From the NCBI GenBank assembly GCA_030167865.1, contig JALAGF010003286.1:62001-126000 (forward strand): 64,000 nt of DNA. The letters run 5' to 3'. The notes under the pieces are model-generated. The model did no database searches and was not told where the DNA came from. It saw only the letters and a list, made by a program, of their open reading frames with translations. The DNA is from Craspedostauros australis (taxonomy: Eukaryota). Positions 13,506 through 34,147 of this stretch are shown here, piece by piece. The translations under genes and the position numbers were made by a program. Position 1 is the stretch's first letter; the number at the start of each line of letters is the position of its first letter.

Positions 13506-16500
13506 ATGAACACGATGGCGACCACCACGGCCGTGCCGAGCAGCTCCGCGCCGAGCAAGACCAAGACGAAGGCCAAGACCAGCAGCAAGGGCAAGCACGG
13601 CAACAAGGAGAGCAACAAGACCTCCAAGTCCAAGACCGGCAGAGGCAGATCGAAGGGACCGTTGGAACGCAAGAAGAAGAGCGTGTCGATCGCCAGCGCG
13701 TCGAAAGGCAGCAAGAATGACACGGACGGCGAGACCGCCAAGACGGCCCGCAGCAGCGACAGCTCCTTGAGCACGGCAGGTGCCACCGACAAGTCGAAGC
13801 AGCGCACCAAGTCCAAGAAGTCGAAGCAGCGCTCCAGGAGCTTGACCAACGTGCCCCAGGCCGCTCTCGACAAGCACAAGAAGCTGTCGAAACGATCGGC
13901 CAATAAGGACAATAGCAAGGACAATAGCAAGGACAACAACAAGGACGTGCCGACAGTTGCCAGACCCAAGAAGACGAAGAATCAGGCGCCGGAGCGATCG
14001 AAGAGTCTCACGATCAATCCCAGCGCTCTCAAGATGGCGGGCATCGTTGCTGGCAGCAGCAAGGATTGCAGCAAATCGCTGTCCAAGTCAACGCATCATG
14101 AAGCCTCCAAGTCCAAGACGAAGAAGAAGCTCAAGACGGCCAGTTCGCATGCGAGTGTCACCAGGAGGTCGAGCGTGGGATCATCTGCCAAGACGCCTCA
14201 GCGCAGCATGAGTCTGGTGGAGCAGACCACCCAGATGATCGCGTCGAGCAGCGATGCTTCTTCTTTGGATGGTCAGGCATTGTCTAGCGAGCCGCAAGCA
14301 GCCGCGGAACCAGTGACGGACTCGCTTGAAACCACCGAATCCGGGACGAAAAAGAAACGCAAAGCCAGTGCGAAGACATCGAAGACCAAGAAGGCTTCCA
14401 ACTTGGCTGGTGTCATCGATGAGGATGAGAATGGCGCGAAAGATGGCGCTGATGTCATTGACAACGACAACAGCAACAACGACAACAGTAGCAACGACAA
14501 CAGCGAGAATGAGCAGAAGGCGTCTGCTGAACAGACGTCCGACGCACCCTCATGCGACGACGCGCCAACATCGCATCTCCCCTCGTCCGCCATCCAAAGC
14601 GAAGTCCTGACGATGCTCAACGAAGACGGCAGCACGCACGACCAGTCTTCCAAACCGCGACCGCTCATGCGAGGACGCAAACCACAAGTCAACGCACGAC
14701 TCATGCGCAAGCCGGATGCCCTGGGAGCACAGTCGATGCATACGCGACGCCGCCGCAGCCGGGACAGGACCAAATGCAAGTACGATCGTTCCAGACCGGC
14801 CATGCGAGGTCGCAAGCCCAAGCGGTCGCAGAGTTTGACGCGCGATGATGTCGAACGCGATGACGATTTGTCGCAGCTGCCGCCGATGCGTGGCAGGAAG
14901 CCGTTGCGGCGCGTTAACAGTATGTCGGATTGCCACAGTTTGCTGCAGCAAACGCAGGAGATGGAGACGCAGTCGGAAGATTCCAACTCGATGGCGGAAG
15001 AAGAGGCCGAGACGCAGGCGGAGGCTCCATCCACGTCTGTTCATGGAGAGCAGGACAGTGCGATGGACCGCGGGCCCAACGCGCTGAGGCGCACAAAGAG
15101 TTTGGAGATGATGCAGACCGTCCCATCCACGAAAGCGGACCAGCCTGTCCACGCCAACAAAGACGGCAGCGACAACAGCGGCGACGACGACATTGATGAT
15201 GATGATCATAACGATAATGATAACGATTTTGGAGACTACGAGATGGATCTCAGCGGCGACAGCGCACATGGTGCCGCGACGGCGGTGCCGCCACCACGCG
15301 AGCCAAAGCGAGGGACGAAGCCACCTGTCAGGTCCAAGAGTCTCACGGGGGAATTCGGTGCTACTGACCAATCGAGCCTGTTCGTCAAGAACGCGCCTGA
15401 CGACGACACCAGCAACAGCGAGGAGCAGCATGACACCATCGAAAACTCCAGCCACCAACGTGCCCATTCCACCGACGAGACCAACGCAACCAAGTCCAAA
15501 TCGTCATCCAAGAAGGATTCCAAGCGAAAGAGCCTGAAGCAGTCCAAGAGCTTGATCGTAAACCCCACCAGCGAACAGGATACGACAACGCAGGCGTCGA
15601 AGGATGGAGATGAAGCAGCGTTGGACAAGGATCATCGCGACGGTGAATACGAAATGGCACTCTCGGGCAACAGCGAGCATGGGCCGCCAGAGAAGAAGGA
15701 CAAGAAGAAGCGATCCAAGTCCACCAAGCGGTCTGGCACTGGTGAGAATTCAAAACGTGAGTCACGATCCCTCGACGGCAAGAGCAGCCACTCGAAACGT
15801 GCCTCCCGGTCTGTTGACACCAAAAGCAATCACTCAAAACGCGCCTCTCGATCTGTTGACAAGAGCAGCCACTCCAAGAGGGCGTCTCGTTCCCTAGACA
15901 AGAGCAGCCACTCGAAACGAACAGCTCGGTCGATGGACAAGAGTGGCCACTCAAAGAGGACATCTCGGTCCCTCGACAAGAGCAGCCACTCCAAGAGGGC
16001 AACTAGGTCGCTGGAGAAGAAGAGCAGCCACTCGAAGCGGAAAACCCGATCACTGGACAAGAGCACGCACTCCAAACCGGTGTCTGGAAGTTCCGACAAG
16101 GAGCCGTCAAAGCGGCAACCGAGAAGCCTCGAAAAAGGCAGCTCGATCCGCAGCTCGCGCAGCACGGATTCGGGATGCTCCAAACGTGCAGGACGAAGCA
16201 TCGATGGCAACTCCATGCGCAGCACCCGCAGCGAGGAATCTCTCATCTCCATGAGAGCATCAAGGAGCGTCACCATCGGAGCTGATTCTTCTTCTCGGCG
16301 TGGGCCGCGGTCGTCCAGCAAAAGCCGCAGCTCGAGCCGCTCGCGGCGTGCTTCCCGCTCCGGCGACGTCACCCTGTCCGAGAAGGATATTGAAGACGCA
16401 TTCATGCTGAGCAACGTCAATTTCATCAATAAGTTGGATGAGTGCGCATCCGCACCTCGCATGCGATCATGTACGTCAGAGGGCTCGCTCAGAAACACCA

Positions 16501-17567
16501 AGTCGTCACTGTCTGCATCCAAACACACGCAGAGGCACAACTGGTACGCCAAGAAGAATGAATCGGATGATGAAGATGGCTCCGTCAAGAGCGCCACCAA
16601 GAAGGACAGGTCGATGATGAGCGGGCTGCATTACCGTCCCGGTCAGGGCTTGCGCCCCAAACGCAACAAGTCCATGACGCGAGAGAACCAGGTGACGAAG
16701 GTGAAATGGATGATGGAGCGCATCATCGATGACGACTTTGACATGAGCCAGCAGGCGAAGGGGGCATCAACTCTGAGCCTGGCAGCGACCATCCGAGGGA
16801 ATGCGTCGAATCGCCGACTGGGCGACGGCGGCATGAACAGCCGTCGTAACCTTGCGAGAGATAGTATGAGATCCGTGACCGGCGGCGAAGAGCAGCAATA
16901 TCCGTCTCAGCGCAGGCCGTTTGGTGTGAGGCGACAGGATGCGCCGGATACTGACCATGTCTTCGCCCCACCAAGTCGCCGTCGCGTCGTTGATAGGCGC
17001 CAGCATGACTGGATGTACCAGGACGATCCATGGGGCGAGGACTTCAAGGGGAGGAACGCAGTCAGTCTCGAAGATTCCGACGGTGCTTCCATCCGAAGCT
17101 TTGGAGATGACGATGAGGAGGGGGAATGCAACTTCGATGACAGCTTGCTGTTCAACGAATCACCCATTCATAAGCCGGTCAAGTTCGTTCCGAAGTCCCA
17201 GCTCGCCGCGCCTATTCTGGAAGAAGAACCCAAACCGGTCAACAACGCCCCAATCCCCATTGGCAAGGCGCTTGATCCATCAGAGCTGCGGGCCTTGCTG
17301 AACCTGCCCAGAACAAAACCCCAAAAGAGTGCGACGGACGATGATATTCCCGCGTACTTCCGTGATGATTACAACAACAACGAGGCCATGCCGAAAGCGT
17401 TCGCGCTATCCAAAGGTGACGAGCCGCTGACGTCCAGATCGGACCATGGCCCGCCGGGTGCATCCTCTCTCTTCTCCCCCGGCAATGGAGCTGCTGCTCG
17501 TGTTCCCATGCGTATGAAACGCGGGGACTTTCGAGCCTCCAATACGGAGCATGTGCGCCGATGCTAA
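13506..17567 (+). CDS. Large Lys/Ser/Arg-rich, probably disordered protein with internal repeats; function unknown
   Basis: Uninterrupted 1353-aa ORF with ATG start; no globular domain recognised; repeated RSxSL and MRGRKP motifs. Confidence 0.7.
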   Translation: MNTMATTTAVPSSSAPSKTKTKAKTSSKGKHGNKESNKTSKSKTGRGRSKGPLERKKKSVSIASASKGSKNDTDGETAKTARSSDSSLSTAGATDKSKQRTKSKKSKQRSRSLTNVPQAALDKHKKLSKRSANKDNSKDNSKDNNKDVPTVARPKKTKNQAPERSKSLTINPSALKMAGIVAGSSKDCSKSLSKSTHHEASKSKTKKKLKTASSHASVTRRSSVGSSAKTPQRSMSLVEQTTQMIASSSDASSLDGQALSSEPQAAAEPVTDSLETTESGTKKKRKASAKTSKTKKASNLAGVIDEDENGAKDGADVIDNDNSNNDNSSNDNSENEQKASAEQTSDAPSCDDAPTSHLPSSAIQSEVLTMLNEDGSTHDQSSKPRPLMRGRKPQVNARLMRKPDALGAQSMHTRRRRSRDRTKCKYDRSRPAMRGRKPKRSQSLTRDDVERDDDLSQLPPMRGRKPLRRVNSMSDCHSLLQQTQEMETQSEDSNSMAEEEAETQAEAPSTSVHGEQDSAMDRGPNALRRTKSLEMMQTVPSTKADQPVHANKDGSDNSGDDDIDDDDHNDNDNDFGDYEMDLSGDSAHGAATAVPPPREPKRGTKPPVRSKSLTGEFGATDQSSLFVKNAPDDDTSNSEEQHDTIENSSHQRAHSTDETNATKSKSSSKKDSKRKSLKQSKSLIVNPTSEQDTTTQASKDGDEAALDKDHRDGEYEMALSGNSEHGPPEKKDKKKRSKSTKRSGTGENSKRESRSLDGKSSHSKRASRSVDTKSNHSKRASRSVDKSSHSKRASRSLDKSSHSKRTARSMDKSGHSKRTSRSLDKSSHSKRATRSLEKKSSHSKRKTRSLDKSTHSKPVSGSSDKEPSKRQPRSLEKGSSIRSSRSTDSGCSKRAGRSIDGNSMRSTRSEESLISMRASRSVTIGADSSSRRGPRSSSKSRSSSRSRRASRSGDVTLSEKDIEDAFMLSNVNFINKLDECASAPRMRSCTSEGSLRNTKSSLSASKHTQRHNWYAKKNESDDEDGSVKSATKKDRSMMSGLHYRPGQGLRPKRNKSMTRENQVTKVKWMMERIIDDDFDMSQQAKGASTLSLAATIRGNASNRRLGDGGMNSRRNLARDSMRSVTGGEEQQYPSQRRPFGVRRQDAPDTDHVFAPPSRRRVVDRRQHDWMYQDDPWGEDFKGRNAVSLEDSDGASIRSFGDDDEEGECNFDDSLLFNESPIHKPVKFVPKSQLAAPILEEEPKPVNNAPIPIGKALDPSELRALLNLPRTKPQKSATDDDIPAYFRDDYNNNEAMPKAFALSKGDEPLTSRSDHGPPGASSLFSPGNGAAARVPMRMKRGDFRASNTEHVRRC
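15762..16076 (+). repeat. Coding tandem repeat, about 8 copies of a 13-14 aa unit (RS[LV]DKSSHSKRxx)
   Basis: SRSLDGKSSHSKRASRSVDTKSNHSKRASRSVDKSSHSKRASRSLDKSSHSKR... with recurring aagagcagccactc. Confidence 0.85.
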
Positions 17568-19809: not shown

Positions 19810-21417
19810 ATGAAGTTGTCTGCCATCGTCGCCTCTGCGCTGTCTGTGCTCTGCACTGCTGATCAGATTGCGCCAGCAACGACCGCGCACACGGGTCCGC
19901 TCTCCAACCAACCGGCGACCGTCACCATCACGCAGAAATCCTTCCGATCCTGGCTGAACCAACATGGCAAGCAGTACGAATCGCAGGAGGAGCACGAGCG
20001 ACGCTTCGCTATCTACCAACGCAACGGCCAGTTGGCGGCGCAGCACAATCGTGCCTTCCGTGCAGGATACACCTCGTACTCCATGTCGTTGGATGGTCCC
20101 TTTGCGGATATGACTGCGGATGAATTCCGATCGTCCCATATCATGGAGCCGCAGGACTGCTCGGCGACGACGCACAAGTCGTCTGGCACCATCGATTCAC
20201 TGAAGGCAGTACGGTGAGACTTTGTGTTGATGGTACTAGTATGGCGGTTGGAGCGTGTGTTGGCGAGGTTGCTGTTCCATTCTTGCCCCATTGCTTTGGA
20301 TGATTGTTTTCTCACGTTGCCCAACCTATTTCACTCAACCTCTCCTCACACAACTCGACTCTACTCACTCTACTCTAATTTATTGTTCACTGCAAACTGC
20401 ACGCTAATCTACCCTGCCATTGATTGCTGCAGAGGCATGATTGCCGAAGAATGGTGCAAACCGACGGAGGTGGACTGGCGCAACAAGGGCATCATCACCC
20501 CCATCAAGAATCAGGCGCATTGTGGTTCCTGCTGGACCTTCTCCACGACGGGCTGCCTCGAGTCGCACGTCTGTCTGGAGAAGCGCCGATCGATGCAACA
20601 TGCCGCTGCCCAACAGGGTGGCGATGCTAGCCTCACCGATCATGACTTTGATTGCACGCAATGGACCGGGCTGGCAGAGCAGCAGCTTGTGGATTGTGCG
20701 CAAGATTACAACAACAACGGCTGCGACGGTGGTTTGCCAAGTCAGGCATTCGAGTACATCTACTACAACGGTGGCATCGACACGGAGGTTGCGTATCCGT
20801 ACCAGGCAGAGGAGACCGGCACATGCAGCTACAAACGCAAGGGCAAAGGAGCCAAGGTGGTGGGCGTCTACAACATCACCAGCGGCGACGAAAAGGAGCT
20901 GGTGCAAGCCGTCAAGGAGATTGGACCTGTCAGCATCGCCTACCAAGTCTCGCCAGATTTCCGCCTCTACGAGCACGGCATCTACGACAGCTTCAACGCC
21001 ACGAGCAATCAGACCATGTGCCACAACACCCCGCACGACGTCAACCACGCGGTCGTTGCCGTTGGGTTGGGAACCACCGACGATGGCAGGGACTATTACA
21101 TCGTTCGCAACTCCTGGAGCAAGACCTGGGGCATGGAGGGGTACTTCTGGATGCTGCGTGGAGAGAACCTATGCGGAGTCAGCGACTGCGCGTCCTTCCC
21201 CTTGGTGCCAACGTCTGTTGGTCACTCGACTCCCACCAATGGCGGCAACCATGATGAAAATGTTGCAGGTTCTCACATGCACAGTCACATGCACAATCAC
21301 ATGTACGATCACATGTACGATGAAGCTTCAGTTGCAGATGGACGTTCTTCTTCAAACAGCGAATCCTACCTTCGCAAGGGTAGTTCAAACAAGGAAGTCG
21401 AAGCTGAGAAGTTGTAG
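19810..21417 (+). CDS. CTSH: Papain-family (C1A) cysteine protease, cathepsin H-like; exons 19810-20213, 20433-21417
   Basis: Signal peptide, I29 prodomain (EEHERRFAIY..N, FADMTADEF), mini-chain EPQDCSAT, VDWR, QAHCGSCWTFS, GCDGGLPSQAFEYI, NHAV, RNSW; phase-2 GT-AG intron restores frame. Confidence 0.9.
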
Positions 21418-21906
21418 CGAAACACTAGTGAATAACCAATGAAGAACTAGTGAACACCTATTATGCGTATGAGATGAGATGGATTGCGAGTAGTGTCGAA
21501 GTAGCAACTTCTATTGCTGAATGGAATGGATTGGATCATAGACTGATATCTCCCTCTAGCTTTGCAATGTTACCGCCTGTTTGTACTGGAAGAGCGCATA
21601 GAAGTGAATTTTCGATGCCTCGGAGTGTCAACGCCACGACTAACCAGTTACACACAAAAGAGAAGGGAGAAAGATCCATTCCGGGAACAGAGAGGAATAA
21701 CCAGTCCACGAACAGAGCACGTCGTACATCAGCCACTGTAACCGGCTTGTCTCCGAGGACCGCAGAGCCGATGCACCTCAAGAGACACCAACAGCACACA
21801 ATTTATTCGATCGCCCATCAACATCACCAACCACAGCCACCAACCACAGTCACCAACAACAGTCGCCAACTGCAGTCACCAACCACAGTCACCAACAACA
21901 GTCACC

Positions 21907-22464
21907 ATGGGTAATTCATCCTCCTCGTCGTACCACCAATACCACAACGACTTTGAGCTCGTGATCCGCGTCGCCAAGGATTTGGAGCACACCTTGGAGC
22001 AGGCATGCGACGTCGATCTCGATGACCGAACCATCGGCTTGCAAGACAAGATCACCATCGCCGAACGGCAGCTTAGTTTGAGCCGAGAGACGATCAAGCA
22101 GCTGCGCTATCTCGTCACCTGTGAGTACGATGTGGTGCTGTTTGTTGTGTCGTCTGTGGTGCGGAGCCATGCATGATGCTTGTGTATTGTGCATGATGTG
22201 AAGGCACGAGTCTTTTTTCTCAGTTTGGCGAAACGATACTTTCTTACATCCCGGACCTTTTTCTGACCCGCTGCTTTGCTGCTCGTACTATTTGGTACAG
22301 TGAGGAATAAATTGGTGCATGACCCCACATTCAACAAGTTGCCCGACCGCAAAGCATTTGCGACCACCTACGAAAAGGCGGGCGTGGAGCTGCACCAGAA
22401 GATCAAGGAACATGGCCGTGGCGGTGGCGGATCGTCGGAAAGCTCCGGTTGCGTCATTTCATAA
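21907..22464 (+). CDS. 125-aa protein with HEPN/DUF4145-like RxxxxH motif, N-myristoylation motif and C-terminal CaaX; exons 21907-22120, 22301-22464
   Basis: Phase-1 intron (gtgagt...tacag) joins LRYLVT to LRNKLVHD; protein starts MGNSSS and ends CVIS-stop. Confidence 0.75.
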
Positions 22465-24990
22465 GAATGCAGGGAATGATGTGTGGTGGTCATGTTTGGC
22501 ACAGCACTGATTGCTGGGTGGACATGCCACGCGGCACGAATTGATGCGGCGTAGATTAATGCCATGCGATTCCTGGCCGAGGAAAGACGTCAGGTGTTGG
22601 AAGAGAGCGAGAGATGGAAACGAAGATGAAGTGAAAGGAGGAGGAGAGATGGCAGAAACGGGCTTCAATCAGCGAAACAAAGGCTGTTCGCGAAGAACAA
22701 CCACCAAGATTGGTTAGCTTGATTGCATCACATCCAACAGCTCATGCCACAAGCGCAGTTCTCCTGCAAAGGCCCACTGAGTCCATCGCAAAAGCAAATG
22801 CCAAGCGCTCCGCGTCACTCGAACATTGGTTGGTGTTATCTTTCTCGGATTTCTGTACCAGGCACAAGCCAATAGTTATTCTCTCTACTCTGTCACACTC
22901 TCTCTTTTCGTCCATTCCCCATACATACGTCATTGCGTTCTGGATATGCGGGGCACGAAGAGCACACCAAGTTGTGAGATTCGTTCCCTGCTCTGCACCT
23001 GCCATTCCGACCATCCGAGCATCCACCAAGATCATCTCCGCCTATTCAGAGGCATCGTGACGACCCGAATGTCAACATAGATGACCAATGCGCACCATCG
23101 ACCATCAGACAAGAAACCATTCGACGCATGATTCCAGTCCGCCCACATCGTACCGGACATCCAAAAGCTGCACACCACCGATTCGAGTGATCCGACCACA
23201 GTCCTTCCACACCTATTCGGAGAGATTGGCGCCAATGTGCAGCACGTTCGGCACGACTTGGTGGTGTATTGCCCCACGTGAATACAAGGAGGTCTGATGC
23301 CATTGTTCGCCACCACCTCGCCATACCGAATCGATCCGTCTTCCGAGTACAAATGTCCTTCCTGCGATGCTGCCATCGTTTCGATGTTCTGAAGATTGAC
23401 ATCAAGGCGAAGGGTGTCACCCAAAAGTGGAAGAATGAAAACGAGATCCTGATGGGGTGCTGTGTTCCCATGTTGAACTCGATCTCATCGTCGTCTTCCT
23501 GGTGACTTTCATGTCTGTGCGAGAAACCTCGCGGCGAGAAGACGGATCCATCGTTCCAGATTTCCGCATTTTCTTGTGGTTGTGATGCCGTGCGAGTCGT
23601 GGATAATGGTCCGAAGAAAAAGAACGCTAATTGGTTCTCGTGTGACACGTTGCGGGACTGCAAGTCGGCTGATCCAATCGGAGAAGATTCGTGATAATTT
23701 GGCCGTGATGACGATGTTCTTTGGTGAAATGCCAACTGCTTTTCCATTGGCTGCGCGAGTGGTGATGTGTTGGTGGCCGCGTCGTTGCTTGTCACTGAGA
23801 CGGACTCTGTTGCGGACAATTATTGGAGGGGGCTTCAACTCACGGCGGTGGAACTAAAGTGGTGGATTGAACGATGGAATCATGGCGTCGAAGTGCGGTT
23901 ACTCGCGTGGGAGAAGAGAGAAAAGAGACATGGGTGTGACAACCACGTCTTTTCCCGCCTCAGGACAGAACCGCCATCACCTCCGACACAGAAAAGGGAG
24001 AGAAGGCGCGTGGAAAATGCCAGAAATGTGGAAGAGAAGTGTCGACGTGTGTCTTTGAGGGCAGATGCGTGCCAGCAGTGGAGTACAAGTGATCGTGTAT
24101 TGCGTGTTTTGGCTCGCACAGTGTCCGTGATGCGCTGATGGAGGAACACCAAAGCGTCTGGAAGTGCGAGTTGGCACACGTGTATTCTTCGGCATCAGTC
24201 TTGCTTTTTCCACGCACCACCAATCAATCAGCCTCGATCGGAATCCGTGGCAGATCCGCACGCGATGTCAACGTTGATCGATCGTTGCCCAATAACAATC
24301 GCATGCGTGCGGTTCTCACACAAGTGCAGCCACGCGAGTAGGCTGTGTGCCTTGGCCAATCGTCCCATAAGCCAAAACACCCGTAAACTGCCTGCTCCAC
24401 ACGTACTCAACCCGCAATCTATTATACAATACTCTATTGCACCAACCTGATAGGCTCTTCCCAGAACCAAAGCAGAACCGATTGGTCTCCGTTGCAACGA
24501 TACCGTGCTTCCAGCATTCCCGCATTCCAACATTCCAGCCTGCCTTCACTCTCCACCAGAGACATCAACAACTTCACTGGCATCGAAAACGATCGCGATT
24601 GCTCGTACGTCGGCATCGAAGAAGTCAACATCAACGTTGACGTCAACATCACCCGCAACATCAACATCAGCACGGCATCAGCACAGTATCAACAGGATCA
24701 GCATCAGCTGCGGAAACGGACATCACTTCCGATTCAAATACCTCGTATTGCCTCATAGCCATCCCCAGACTAGTCCGGATACCATACTCGCACACTACAA
24801 AGCAGTACGCCACTCTTTCTCACAGAGGATTAGTACCGCACACCTTGCGTGGAAGCAATCAAACACGGTGGCATTGCAGATTGGATCAGCATCGGTCACA
24901 ATCCTGGATCGAGCATCAACAGGAACACCCCCACACAATACAACCGCACAACAATACAACAGAACAATACAACAACTGCACAATACAACC

Positions 24991-29490: not shown

Positions 29491-32400
29491 ATGGCGGATA
29501 ACAGCAGCAATGACGGCCATCACGATGTTGATGACGTCAAGATTCATGACAGCAATGACGACAATGACGACAATGACAGGAATGCCAACAGCGACAACGC
29601 AGGTGATGAAAACGTCCATGATCGCAGCATCGAAGACATCGAATCGAATGGCAACAATGGCGACGTAGATGATGACAACGCCCACGATCCCGGCATCGAA
29701 GACAACGACTCAAATGGCGACAACGTGGATGGACACGGTGAAGCCAGAAGTGGAGACATTGAAGAAGACATCAGTGACGACATCCCACCACAGGCAGCTC
29801 CTTCGACCGTGGACGATGAGGCACCGCAAGAACAGCCAACAGAAGAACAAGAAGTGAAGGAGGAAGAAGAGGATCGGCAGGAACAAGAACTGCAGGAGCA
29901 CCAACAACCGCTCCCACCCGCACTGCCGAATCCGTACGCACCAGGAGAGACAGGTGATGAGTCTGGCAGCCGCATGACCGCGGACTACGGCACCAGCGAC
30001 GACGAGGCGTACGATTTCTCCTACAGTGTCGACGAAGTGGAGAGCATCGACGAGCTATTGCAGGCACCGCCGTCTCCACAACGGGCCGATGCGAAGCGCG
30101 AGAAGAAGTCGTACGATGATACCATCAGCGTCGATAACGACGACGACGATGATGATCGCAAAACTGGCACCATGGGATCCAGTCCTGTCCCGGTACCGAC
30201 GTCCACACCAGCCAGCAACGTAGCATCCCTAACTGCTGCGGCGCGCGCTGAAACTGCAAAGACCGGGGCACCAGAGAAGAAGCAGACTTCGGCCTGGCAG
30301 GTCTTCTTGGGTGGTTTCGTGGCCGGCGTGCTCGCGCTGGGCATCGTCCTTGCTGCCGTCTTTAGTGACAGTGACGACAGTGCCGATGAGGCCACAAATG
30401 CCATCGCACAATCAACGCAGCCGCCCTCTAAAATTCCAGAAGCAGCGAGCAACGACACATCACTGTTACCCTCCATGCAGCCGGCTGATAGCCCCACCGA
30501 AACCTCACCTCCTAGTGCTGCCGTCGACGATCCAGAAGCTCAATTCTACGACCACTTTGAAACCCTTATGGGGCCCCTCATTCGTAGCCCTAGCACACCG
30601 CACAAGGCGGCTGCAGATTGGATCTTGATGGACGATCCACGCATCACGGCAACATCCACCAGTCGGATCCAACTACCATCAGTATCCGCATCCGCATCAG
30701 CCAAGCAACTCGATTTCAGCGATCCACTGTCCATTCCGCCGGAACAGCTCGAGCAGCGATACCTCATGGCCTTTTTCTATTTTGCATTCAGCGATACCGG
30801 ACTTGCGCCGTGGGAATTCTGCTCACCACCATCACAGCTCTCTAATACGTCCACGCGATGCGAATACTTTGAATATCGCGACGGACCAAACGTGAAAGTT
30901 GAAGCCAGTCGATGGCTGACAGCAGACAGCGAGTGCCAATGGGCCGGAGTGGTATGCAACGAAGCATTGCAAGTGGGATCCGTCTCTCTGCGTAAGTACT
31001 TATGTATCCTTGATGTGCTTCTGCGACATCACCATACAAATGCATCTTTCTCGTTGTGTTGTTCCTTCTTTGCACCGTCAGACTCACGCTTGAACTCGTT
31101 CTCGCACTTACGTACAATCGTGCGGCAACTTGCCGAACCACCCGCTGATCACGCGCCATGCCGATCCCATCCTTGTCTCTGATTTTGCATCTGCTCCTGC
31201 CTACCTACCTCTATGCTTGCCTTCTCCTTTGCTTCATCGCAGACGACTTCGCGTTGGTCGGTAGCCTTGCATCGGAGATCATGCTCCTCCCAACACTCGC
31301 ACATCTCAGCTTGACAGCCAGCAAACTTGGCGGCACGATCCCTCTCGAATACTCCAAATTGGTATCCCTCAACTTGACCAACAACGAGGTGACTGGCGAA
31401 ATCCCAGCCGCCTTCTTCACTGTGGCATCATCCATGACGGATTTCGACCTAGCCAACAACACCCTCGTTGGCCCGATCCCCCCACAAATTGGTAGCGCCG
31501 GTGCCCTCCAAATATTTAACGTCGCCAACAACTCCCTAACTTCTTTCCTTCCAACCGAAATCGATCAGCTCCAATCTCTCAAAGTCTTCAACGTTGCCAA
31601 CAACGGTTTGGTCGGATCCATCCCTGCCATTTTCGGCAGTTTCGATTGGACTGCCAACTTGGTAGAGCTAGTGCTGTCGGGAAATGGACTTGAGGGGGAA
31701 CTTCCATCCCTGAACGGTCTCGCCAGGGCGTTGGAGCGTTTCGAGGTGGCTGACAACGGACTGGATGGCCGGATCCCGATCAGCCTAGGAAGCCTCACCC
31801 ATTTGGTCGTGGCGCGCTTGGACAACAATCTTCTCACCGGGCCCATCCCAACTGAACTTGGTGTTTTCAAGCGCTTGGAACGGTTGTGGCTCAACGACAA
31901 TCCGATCTCTTTCACCATTCCATCTGAACTGGGGTGGTTGTCGTCATTGAAAGAGGCCCGATTCGGCAACACTCTCATCTCCGGCAGTGTGCCCACAGAG
32001 CTCTGCAGCCTGGATCTCACCACGCTATCTGCTGACTGCTTCCGCGTCAACTGTACCTGCTGCACGGTCTGCACGGTGGATCCTCGCGTGTCCGACATCC
32101 GCAATGGCCTTGCGAAACTGCTGGGTGGCGAAGACAAGATATCCAATGACAATCAGCCGTTGGGACGTGCCATGGCCTGGATCATCAGTCAGGATCCGGC
32201 TCAGCTGTTGTTCTCGTCTCCGAACTTCGTCCAGCGTTTCGTGTTGGCAGCTTTCTACTTTCAAATGTCCCAACTTGGCTCGAAGCCGTGGCGCAGTTGC
32301 AACCCCAACTTTTCCGACTACAACGACGAAACCTGCGACTTTGAGCAGATCACTGAAGATTCGGCAACGTCGACAGCCAGCAAAAGATGGCTGTCGTCAG

Positions 32401-34147
32401 CGCCGGAAACCACCTGGAGCGGCGTTAACCACAACGCATCGCAGTCCTTGAAAGTGGAACGGCTCTACCTCCGTGAGTCCTTTTCACTCTTGTGCGTCTT
32501 CTACTCTGTGTGCGACTATTTGCACTCTGCGAACCTTTTCAATCCCATTCTGTTCTGTTACGGTAGCGCTTCCAGCTGGCTTGGTGGTGCATGCTGTGCG
32601 TTTCATTTTACATTCGTTTGCGTGAAAACGAAGGAGACAGCGATCGACTTCCCACATCATCATCTACCAAGTGCTCACATCATCTCTCATCCTCGCTGCT
32701 GCTACTGCGACTGCTATTGCCTCCTAATACATGTCAATTTCTTTCCACACTCTGCTCACCCACACCCTGGCGCACAGCCGGACAAGAGCTGCTCGGTCAT
32801 CTCCCGGATGAGTTGACGCTCCTCAGCGATTTAACGCATCTGCTGCTCCCGCATAATTCCATCCAAGGTACCTTGCCTCCTGCATACGGCGACAGCAGCA
32901 AATTCCCTCTGGTCGCATTAGACCTCCGTGACAACATGATCATTGGAACCCGTGAGTCGAAGCATGTCCTGCCGATGATTGCTGGTTGCTGGTTGCAGCT
33001 CATGGTGCAGCTCATGGTGCAAACACAACTACTCTACCATACGCTATTGCACATTTTCGCATGCTCTTTGGAATACTATTCGTTCGATGTGTGACATCAA
33101 CCACTACTCGGATCTGCTCACTAACATTTCCTACTCTGATCATCACCTTTACGCGTAACGTGTCCTCATTTTTCGTACACCATCTCTCTCACAACCTGAA
33201 CAGTTGCGGACGGCTTCTTCGCCAATTCGCAGACCTTGGAGAAGCTGAATCTTGGAGTCAACATGCTTGTGGGCCGCTTGCCGAGCAGTATCTTCACAAC
33301 GCAAAGTTTGCAGTCTCTCAATCTCACTCACAACAATCTGACTGATGAGGTACCTGTTGAGATTTCGTATCTTGCATCGCTGACGTCGCTGGATTTATCT
33401 TACAACTTGTGGCGCGGGGAAGTTCCAACTGAACTTGGAGTGCTGAGCAGGCTGGAACATCTCATTGTCGGCGGCTACAGAGGAATCACAGGGCAACTTC
33501 CGACGGAGATCGGAAAGCTGACACGCTTGCGGTTGTTGGATATCTCCAACACGAAAATGAGGGGGAAGCTACCAGCCGAGATCGGGAACCTGTTACGCTT
33601 GCAATCTCTGGATGTGTCCAACTCAGAGATGACGGAACAAGTGCCGTCAGAGTACGGCCTGCTCTCCAATCTTCAGTTTCTGAACATGGCGCAGAACAAG
33701 CTCGCAGGGTCCATTCCCACAACCTTGGGTCTCTTGACGGAGTTGGTGGATCTGCGGCTCAATGGCAACAACCTCATCGGTCCGATACCAACAGAGTTTG
33801 GCCTACTGACAGATCTAGAAGTGCTGCACATGCAAGCAAACGAGCTCAACGGGATAATTGGGGCAGAGCTCGGCTTGATGACCAGCCTGATGGATTTGCG
33901 GTTGAATCACAACAATTTCAATGGCACATTGCCAATATCTTTCGTCCTGCTCGGGGACTTGAGAGTTGCGTTATTCCATGCCAATTCCATTGTCGGTCCG
34001 ATCCCAACCGGCGTCTGTTCAATCCTGATATTGGAGCAGTTCATGACGGACTGTAATTCACAACCACCCACCGTGGATTGCAGTTGCTGCACGCAATGCT
34101 GCGTCCCGCAGGTATTTGACTCGTGTCCAGTGGACTTTGATTTCTGA
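29491..34147 (+). CDS. Single-pass membrane LRR protein with two tandem cap+LRR modules; exons 29491-30991, 31243-32472, 32778-32951, 33204-34147
   Basis: Acidic N-terminus, TM VFLGGFVAGVLALGIVLAAVF, cap domain twice (AADWI..D...QRYLMAFFY / AMAWI..D...QRFVLAAFY), more than 20 LRRs, Cys-rich C-caps (CTCCTVC, CSCCTQC); three phase-1 GT-AG introns. Confidence 0.88.

Follow-up and report, generated by a model that had tools for sequence, protein, structure and literature searches.

HEPN RNases typically build a composite active site at a dimer interface (PMC13017515), and the two motifs by which they are recognised, R-x4-6-H and E-x3-[KR], were defined in a 2013 survey of the superfamily (PMC3710099). 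The widely conserved eukaryotic families named in that survey are the KEN domains of Ire1 and RNase L, Las1, C6orf70 and Swt1. Those families that have been studied are central in RNA processing or stress, and the survey contrasts conserved families of this kind, which serve core RNA processing, with lineage-specific expansions, which serve defence (PMC3710099). Among small HEPN proteins, the HepT or HEPN-M toxins (PF01934; PDB 5yep, 6m6w, 7ae2 and 1ylm) combine a four-helix fold with an R-x4-H motif and a homodimeric assembly.

The gene that we describe here occupies positions 21907 to 22464 on the forward strand of a 64,000-nt stretch of Craspedostauros australis DNA (the window, meaning the whole of that stretch), and its two exons encode a 125-aa protein. 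HepT toxins provide both the best Foldseek matches and the best Pfam match of this protein (E 0.0023), and the fold and assembly listed above are predicted for the C. australis product, in which the motif is also seen. However, the protein falls below the cut-offs for these toxins (18.1 versus 23.5 bits for PF01934 and 13.5 versus 60 bits for NF047751), shares only 14 to 21% identity with them, and belongs to a eukaryotic family that carries membrane-anchor signals. The nucleotidyltransferase partner of the HepT-MntA pair was found neither among the neighbours of the gene in the window nor among 20 scanned proteins that represent selected clusters of recurrent neighbours of the bacterial relatives.

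A second comparison is with DUF4145 (PF13643), the group that includes RAZR, and the original prediction had proposed a link of this type. Relatives do exist in bacteria, and members of the family are named in databases as 'hypothetical' or 'DUF4145 domain-containing', the latter in several UniRef and RefSeq entries. Pfam matches at E ≤ 0.01 among 119 members comprise nine to HepT-like and eight to DUF4145 models (best 4e-5). The proposed link to bacterial proteins, some of them labelled DUF4145, is thus supported. Nevertheless, the C. australis protein passes no Pfam or NCBIfam cut-off and has no match to PF13643 even at E ≤ 10. In the survey, DUF4145 is recorded solely from bacteria, archaea and viruses, and its membrane-bound members possess a helix at the N-terminus that bears a WP signature (PMC3710099), whereas the bacterial relatives found here have a C-terminal tail. 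A typical member of the present family also lacks the zinc finger or restriction-enzyme fusion of DUF4145 proteins.

HepS, encoded by the Gifsy-1 prophage of Salmonella, likewise has a single HEPN domain and no antitoxin, but it is tetrameric, with 218 residues in the matched chain, and prophage-borne, whereas members of the present family have about 115 to 125 residues and anchor signals and are chromosomal and conserved. The KEN domain of Ire1 and C6orf70/DUF4209 would be analogous in working at a membrane and in being conserved across eukaryotic groups. These are large proteins, either transmembrane or fused to a kinase, and no sequence match between them and the C. australis protein was seen, which instead has lipid signals at both ends and no sensor domain. 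Finally, MtlR-type proteins, which are found in mannitol operons, retain the motif in about 60% of members (PMC3710099, Table 1).

Neither a lipid-anchored eukaryotic HEPN family nor a HEPN protein with a single C-terminal tail anchor is described in Table 1 or sections 5, 6, 7, 9 and 15 of the survey, and the words 'myristoyl', 'prenyl', 'diatom' and 'oomycete' do not occur in its main text, although the family could still figure in its Additional file (PMC3710099). A description was likewise not found in the titles and abstract openings of the open-access literature. Thus, the family is apparently undescribed and would represent a lipid-signal-bearing variant within the HEPN superfamily, for which we found no precedent with such signals at both ends.

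Gene structure, transcript and conserved core

As the original prediction held, the gene is visible only after splicing. The intron has a GTGAGT donor, a branch-like CTGAC site at 22263, a YAG acceptor and a T content of 37%. Enumeration over the gene yields 115 GT/GC..AG pairings that leave the frame open, and therefore the splice form is not fixed by enumeration alone. A contig from what is presumed to be an RNA run (X1), however, joins 22120 directly to 22301, omitting exactly the intervening 180 nt. Moreover, EukProt/MMETSP contains, under the truncated diatom label 'Craspedostaur...', a 125-aa protein that agrees with this splice form at every residue (P0004). Because the contig and the recorded protein possibly derive from the same sample, we count them as a single line of transcript evidence. 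Independently of this line, twelve relatives depart from the family alignment directly after the same V-T, continuing with C, G, R or S. These are the four residues that an N|GT codon gives, which suggests that gene callers read through the same intron. The gene is therefore real. Searches of Pfam and Atlas conducted exon by exon gave no match, and signal was obtained from the spliced protein only.

Features of the C. australis gene and its product, in window coordinates
Feature	Position	Strand	Basis or remark
5′ UTR	21823–21906	+	start of run X1 contig 2 at 21823
Exon 1, residues 1–71 and first base of codon 72	21907–22120	+	ATG at 21907
Phase-1 spliceosomal intron, 180 nt, just before the catalytic motif	22121–22300	+	contig joint
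Exon 2, remainder of codon 72 to TAA stop	22301–22464	+	contig joint
3′ UTR	22465–22856	+	contig coverage
N-myristoylation-type start MGNSSSS, with Gly2 and Ser6	21907–21927	+	conserved in family
E17-x3-R21, second HEPN motif Ex3[KR]	21955–21969	+	helix 1, predicted dimer axis
G-L-Q-D-K-I (family consensus G-L-H-E-K-I)	22036–22053	+	Q46 replaces second conserved His
R73-N-K-L-V-H78, HEPN R-x4-H motif	22303–22320	+	end of helix 3 (60–78)
CaaX box CVIS, preceded by Gly/Ser linker	22450–22461	+	conserved in family

The protein starts with MGNSSS, carries DLEHTLE at residues 25 to 31 and RNKLVH at residues 73 to 78, and ends with CVIS. For an assessment of conservation, 276 family proteins were gathered (P0015, a repeat-rich false match, was removed), and 246 of these have a complete core as judged by a filter. 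The 30 that were set aside comprise 14 proteins that keep R-N-x3-H yet miss the N-terminal pattern and 16 that end no later than the motif, in 11 cases at the intron position. Among 234 eukaryote-type rows, R73 is present in all (the filter required an R), N74 in 230 and H78 in 231. Thus, R-N-x3-H is nearly invariant, and R73-N74...H78 has the arrangement expected of the HEPN superfamily, in which R-x4-6-H closes helix 3 and the arginine is followed by a polar residue.

The E-x3-[KR] feature is also present, with E17 in 229 and R or K at position 21 in 219 of the same 234 rows, although the acidic residue belongs to helix 2 according to the survey (PMC3710099), whereas the model of the C. australis protein has E17 in helix 1. 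Conservation extends to K24 (233/234) and E27 (215/234), and to many other surface residues beyond the R-x4-H motif. A second histidine, within G-L-H-E-K, is found in 201 of these 234 rows and in 90 of 92 from bacteria, and is replaced by Gln (Q46) in the C. australis protein.

The number of open-frame splice pairings and the failure to reach any Pfam or NCBIfam cut-off could be taken to mean that the gene model is an artefact, in which the splice is misplaced or the terminal motifs arose by chance on a helical protein of some other kind. This explanation is ruled out by the observed splice joint, the recorded protein and the hundreds of homologs that keep all three motifs, which reduce its probability to a negligible level. 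Neither another splicing pattern nor a non-HEPN fold nor a lack of motif conservation, any of which would have spoken against the original prediction, was found.

The C. australis genome contains at least one diverged paralog in addition to the gene studied here, and no large expansion in copy number was found by a search that gives a lower bound. The paralog (202 aa, P0056 on record; G000:C5792, L003 1737–956 on the reverse strand) has an intron at the same position and retains RNKLVH. It lacks Ser6 and has a long charged tail where the CaaX box would be. By eye, it is flanked by a nucleotide-cyclase-like gene and an ankyrin-repeat-like gene. A separate minor observation concerns the 5′ UTR of the gene studied here, where several imperfect short direct repeats can be read between 21828 and 21906, reaching the ATG.

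Predicted fold and dimer

An AlphaFold2 model of the protein (pLDDT 84.6) has four helices, formed by residues 15 to 34, 45 to 56, 60 to 78 and 88 to 111, and low-confidence ends. HepT toxins fill the first 10 rows of the Foldseek list, with E values from 0.04 to 0.15, and no match falls below 0.001. When the model was compared with 48,161 chains by VIA-align, the top match was 2hsb (Z 9.7, rmsd 3.1, 101 aligned), followed by YutE, HepS (third; Z 9.2, rmsd 5.0, 122 aligned), MtlR and YggD (Z 8.7 to 9.1, rmsd 2.7 to 2.8, 9 to 13% identity) and a HEPN toxin, where a Z near 9 lies in a range that, as the tool warns, is not decisive for helical bundles. Eight of the 10 best VIA rows belong to the HEPN superfamily, either by title or according to Table 1 of the survey (PMC3710099). 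Because HEPN structures head both fold lists, the motif is present, and weak Pfam matches to HepT and DUF4145 occur among members, the protein is predicted to adopt a four-helix HEPN fold, in agreement with the fold first proposed for it.

Several other searches were without result. The family profile gave no meaningful match to PDB sequences, and no viral fold in BFVD matched at E ≤ 0.001, where the best hit was an uncharacterised phage protein (E 0.056). An Atlas lead to DUF6548 (score 0.90) was dropped, as Pfam bears it out for a single member among 119.

Dimer formation, likewise anticipated from the motif, was modelled with two copies of residues 8 to 112. The resulting complex has an ipSAE of 0.74 versus 0.00 for the best control, a contact agreement between runs of at least 92% and a pLDDT of at least 88. 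In tests on eukaryotic proteins, 17 of 29 solved homodimers and none of 30 solved monomers attained the mark used. Among homodimers that lack an older solved relative, only one of seven did so, and the score may therefore reflect memory of solved HEPN dimers. The predicted interface involves residues 14 to 28 and 76 to 83, and places H78 beside K24′ and E27′ and V77 beside V77′ on the axis. Thus, the model predicts a HEPN-type homodimer with His78 at its interface.

Membrane-anchor signals and distribution of the family

The N-myristoylation consensus consists of Gly2 with Ser or Thr at position 6, and farnesylation is specified by a terminal C-a-a-X in which a2 is aliphatic and X is S, M, C, A or Q. 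Both signals are widespread among the 232 complete members that have an N-terminal extension. An MG is located 6 to 52 residues ahead of the core in 211 of these proteins and at residue 1 in 183, and Ser6 is present in 198 of the 211 that bear an MG. A CaaX end is found in 194 members, and MG and CaaX occur together in 180 of the 232. The a2 residue is aliphatic in 196 of 197 CaaX boxes, and 186 of the 197 have one of the five listed residues at X. These frequencies are far above the chance levels estimated from 1602 bacterial control ORFs (4.3% for MG and 0.25% for C-x-[VIL]-x), with a slight sample bias possible from search queries that contained both ends. Sharp preferences at Ser6 and a2 are what selection for recognition by myristoyl- and farnesyltransferases would leave. 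Together with the near invariance of the motif, they match the expectation, set out before homologs were collected, that R-x4-H, Gly2 and CaaX are conserved together. Double lipid tethering is known in other proteins, for example in some protist Rheb GTPases (PMC5869587).

Six eukaryote-type members (P0052, P0088, P0111, P0117, P0129 and P0159) have an MG start and a hydrophobic tail, Gly/Ala-rich, without CaaX. P0129 carries an additional ZZ zinc finger.

Bacterial relatives were sought by a scan of GTDB contigs with a 12-row bacterial-type alignment, as a broad alignment gave no usable pattern. The scan confirmed 216 of 221 pattern matches, and 80 loci were taken up. Because the pattern fixes R-N-K, conservation of R and N is built in for these 80 loci, and divergent bacterial members are under-sampled. 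The loci comprise 49 of Vibrionaceae type (one from a MAG labelled Kordiimonas), 29 from Planctomycetota, one from Verrucomicrobiota and one from another gammaproteobacterium. They begin directly at helix 1 and lack CaaX, and a C-terminal hydrophobic helix is present in 78 of the 80. Considered together with the six eukaryote-type members that combine MG with a hydrophobic tail, this pattern shows that the tether has changed form, between lipid signals and a hydrophobic tail, while the core stayed. The different anchoring device of the bacterial members, like the breadth of the family across eukaryotes, was missed in the original prediction.

In remoter bacterial members, the core is accompanied by an extension of periplasmic type, by a CFI-box-CTERM domain or by a hydrophobic segment at the N-terminus. 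In P0157, for example, the HEPN core is fused to a CFI-box-CTERM domain, and at L089 (1501–3285) it is fused to a membrane helix and a 450-residue repeated extension. Members of Gemmataceae type (L004, L008–L011, L013, L018, L019, L030 and L041), which are often located after a YciI gene, have a conserved G-C just ahead of the membrane tail. This dipeptide sits about where the eukaryotic G-C-a-a-X does, and may point to a link between the two anchors.

Of 101 Vibrionaceae genomes, 98 carry the gene, with one strong match apiece. It is flanked by an acyltransferase/DUF2500 pair on one side and by yhhN, rsmD and ftsY on the other. Its median identity of 61.5% equals that of RsmD over the same 780 genome pairs. 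The ortholog is more conserved than four of seven neighbours (YhhN, DUF2500, DUF2492 and the acyltransferase) and less conserved than DUF1145 and MarC. Among the 12 weakest orthologs, which were picked by low score, R-x4-H is lost in 11 and the second His in all 12, and the open frame, tail and gene order are retained. Catalysis thus appears to be dispensable in some lineages, which speaks against a simple interpretation of the protein as an essential enzyme. The motif-less orthologs (L096 and L102–L111) include several sequence types, an observation suggestive of more than one loss.

Elsewhere in bacteria the gene is sparse. It was found in 14 of 401 Pseudomonadota, nine of which are Vibrionaceae and five lie beyond, and in 1 of 151 Planctomycetota, the one being the seed genome. 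The distribution outside the Vibrionaceae is thus patchy, as that of defence genes often is. The family occurs on seven plasmid records. Phage records gave no match, and none of 43 pattern matches in viral contigs was confirmed.

A phmmer search against a 50% library gave 214 representatives at E ≤ 0.001. A profile was then built from 119 full-length members chosen by hand, and with it the number of clusters rose to 537 at E ≤ 1e-6. Among the matches listed, labels include diatoms (Cyclostephanos, Thalassiosira, Ditylum, Seminavis, Fragilaria and Nitzschia), oomycetes (Achlya, Aphanomyces, Saprolegnia, Thraustotheca and Bremia), a cryptophyte (Rhodomonas), green algae (Tetraselmis, Pyramimonas and Prasinoderma), the chytrid Globomyces, the ichthyosporean Amoebidium and the bryozoan Bugula. 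Atlas clusters add Haptophyta. Because most members have no taxon label, this range is a lower bound. The Bugula and Amoebidium members pair in the tree (SH-aLRT 96), which argues against a stray contaminant. Judged from these sequences, the family is widespread in eukaryotes and spans several supergroups. Pennate diatoms, Prasinoderma and Amoebidium are non-flagellated lineages, and a ciliary role was set aside because the carriers include lineages of this kind.

Trees were built from about 100 columns by a quick search and are unrooted, with no outgroup. In these trees, 20 of 21 bacterial rows cluster (SH-aLRT 93), and a constraint that places 30 bacterial rows in one group is not rejected (p-AU 0.81, with nine long or fragmentary rows dropped). 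The pattern is compatible with one transfer between domains, in either direction. The wide eukaryotic and narrow bacterial spread makes a transfer from eukaryotes to bacteria possible.

Possible roles and surroundings of the gene

The reading that we favour, although we regard it as evenly poised, is that the protein is a HEPN RNase that forms homodimers tethered by lipids, stays latent and acts specifically on RNA near the membrane, with a conserved housekeeping or stress role rather than an antiviral one. We infer that it would be myristoylated on Gly2 and farnesylated on Cys122, such that up to four lipids would attach a homodimer to the cytosolic side of a membrane. At the dimer interface, the R-N-x3-H motifs of the two subunits would come together as one metal-independent RNase site. 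The substrate would most likely be a specific membrane-proximal RNA, such as a tRNA or an mRNA on membrane-bound ribosomes. Because a spliced transcript is present and no antitoxin gene is in sight, the RNase is likely to be latent until triggered. Bacterial members may do an equivalent job by means of their C-terminal transmembrane tail. The exchange of lipid for transmembrane anchors with retention of the core suggests that membrane position belongs to the function. By analogy, the family looks more like the conserved HEPN kind engaged in core RNA processing than like the expansion kind, though with gaps. Points that weigh against the favoured reading are the modest fold scores, the motif-less Vibrionaceae orthologs, the replacement of the second conserved His by Q46 in the C. 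australis protein and the patchy spread in other bacteria.

The antiviral role suggested in the original prediction is the likeliest of the alternatives. The protein would then be a membrane-tethered antiviral or cell-suicide RNase, latent until it senses an incoming or assembling virus particle, that cuts tRNA or another RNA and stops translation in the manner of HepS or RAZR. Conflict systems account for most of the characterised HEPN RNases (PMC3710099). HepS, activated by phage tail tips, demonstrates that a single-domain HEPN protein without antitoxin can be an antiviral effector (PMC13043305), and RAZR is a DUF4145-type HEPN protein activated by phage rings (PMC13017515). The patchy bacterial distribution and the plasmid records are also consistent with such a role. 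Nevertheless, this alternative appears rather unlikely. The Vibrionaceae gene has a fixed chromosomal position among housekeeping genes, and its single copy, conserved gene order and slow evolution accord better with a housekeeping or stress role. No defence gene was found among the 20 recurrent bacterial neighbours scanned (one representative each of selected clusters), and PADLOC defence models gave nothing better than E 0.002 with nine family proteins. The marks of an anti-phage system, namely a defence model, a defence island or a mobile element, were not seen beyond the seven plasmid records; the synteny is of the housekeeping kind, the phage and viral collections hold no confirmed copy, and large expansion was not found in the C. 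australis genome, for which the copy count is a lower bound. A family that is slowly evolving and low-copy, and is a Vibrionaceae core gene outside any recognisable defence context, thus offers little to the antiviral proposal.

Catalysis itself could be questioned. The HEPN dimer might act as a membrane adaptor, of MtlR or Swt1 type, that binds RNA, a nucleotide or a partner through the conserved cleft. The persistence of motif-less orthologs in place in several Vibrionaceae lineages, the MtlR-family proteins among the best fold matches, and the many conserved surface residues beyond the motif are all consistent with an adaptor. However, R, N, H and E-x3-[RK] are conserved together in nearly all complete eukaryote-type members, RNase activity is predicted for HEPN families that keep the motif (PMC3710099), and decay of the motif also fits the slow loss of a dispensable enzyme. 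We therefore consider an adaptor unlikely. Alternatively, HEPN chemistry might be directed at small nucleotides, either cyclic oligonucleotides or 2′,3′-cyclic phosphates, in membrane signalling. The HEPN domains of CRISPR Csm6 degrade cyclic oligoadenylates and offer a precedent, and a tiny protein with no RNA-binding accessory domain and with lipid anchors typical of signalling proteins would suit this activity. The scanned recurrent bacterial neighbours, among which no nucleotide cyclase or related gene was found, argue against it, and we consider it quite improbable.

A broader form of the favoured RNase reading, which we put forward only tentatively and hold to be doubtful, is that the family is a eukaryotic RNase system of great age, possibly dating back to LECA, which work on model organisms has missed. 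A minimal HEPN dimer clamped by four lipids would cut a defined RNA at the membrane and would be switched by membrane state, clustering or anchor release. The Vibrionaceae would have a counterpart with a transmembrane tail, the gene having perhaps passed from eukaryotes to marine bacteria. If the favoured reading is true, it would add a conserved HEPN family found in stramenopiles, cryptophytes, haptophytes, green algae, fungi and holozoans, and would hint at a mode of RNA cleavage at cell membranes that has escaped study. Because the protein has only 125 residues and a near-universal ortholog in the tractable Vibrionaceae, which RNA is cut, and when, is directly testable.

The neighbours of the gene in the window encode a papain-type protease and an alpha/beta hydrolase. 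The papain-family cysteine protease gene (19813–21417, +; PF00112, E 7e-64) lies just upstream and has an intron at about 20213–20431, for which the splice joint was observed. In its product, the region of the catalytic Cys is followed by an insertion, and the C-terminus is extended by a segment that contains short His/Met repeats. Farther away, inspection by eye identifies a 1353-aa low-complexity ORF with Ser/Lys/Arg-rich repeats (13506–17567, +) and a multi-exon gene whose product has a membrane helix and leucine-rich repeats (29491–34147, +).
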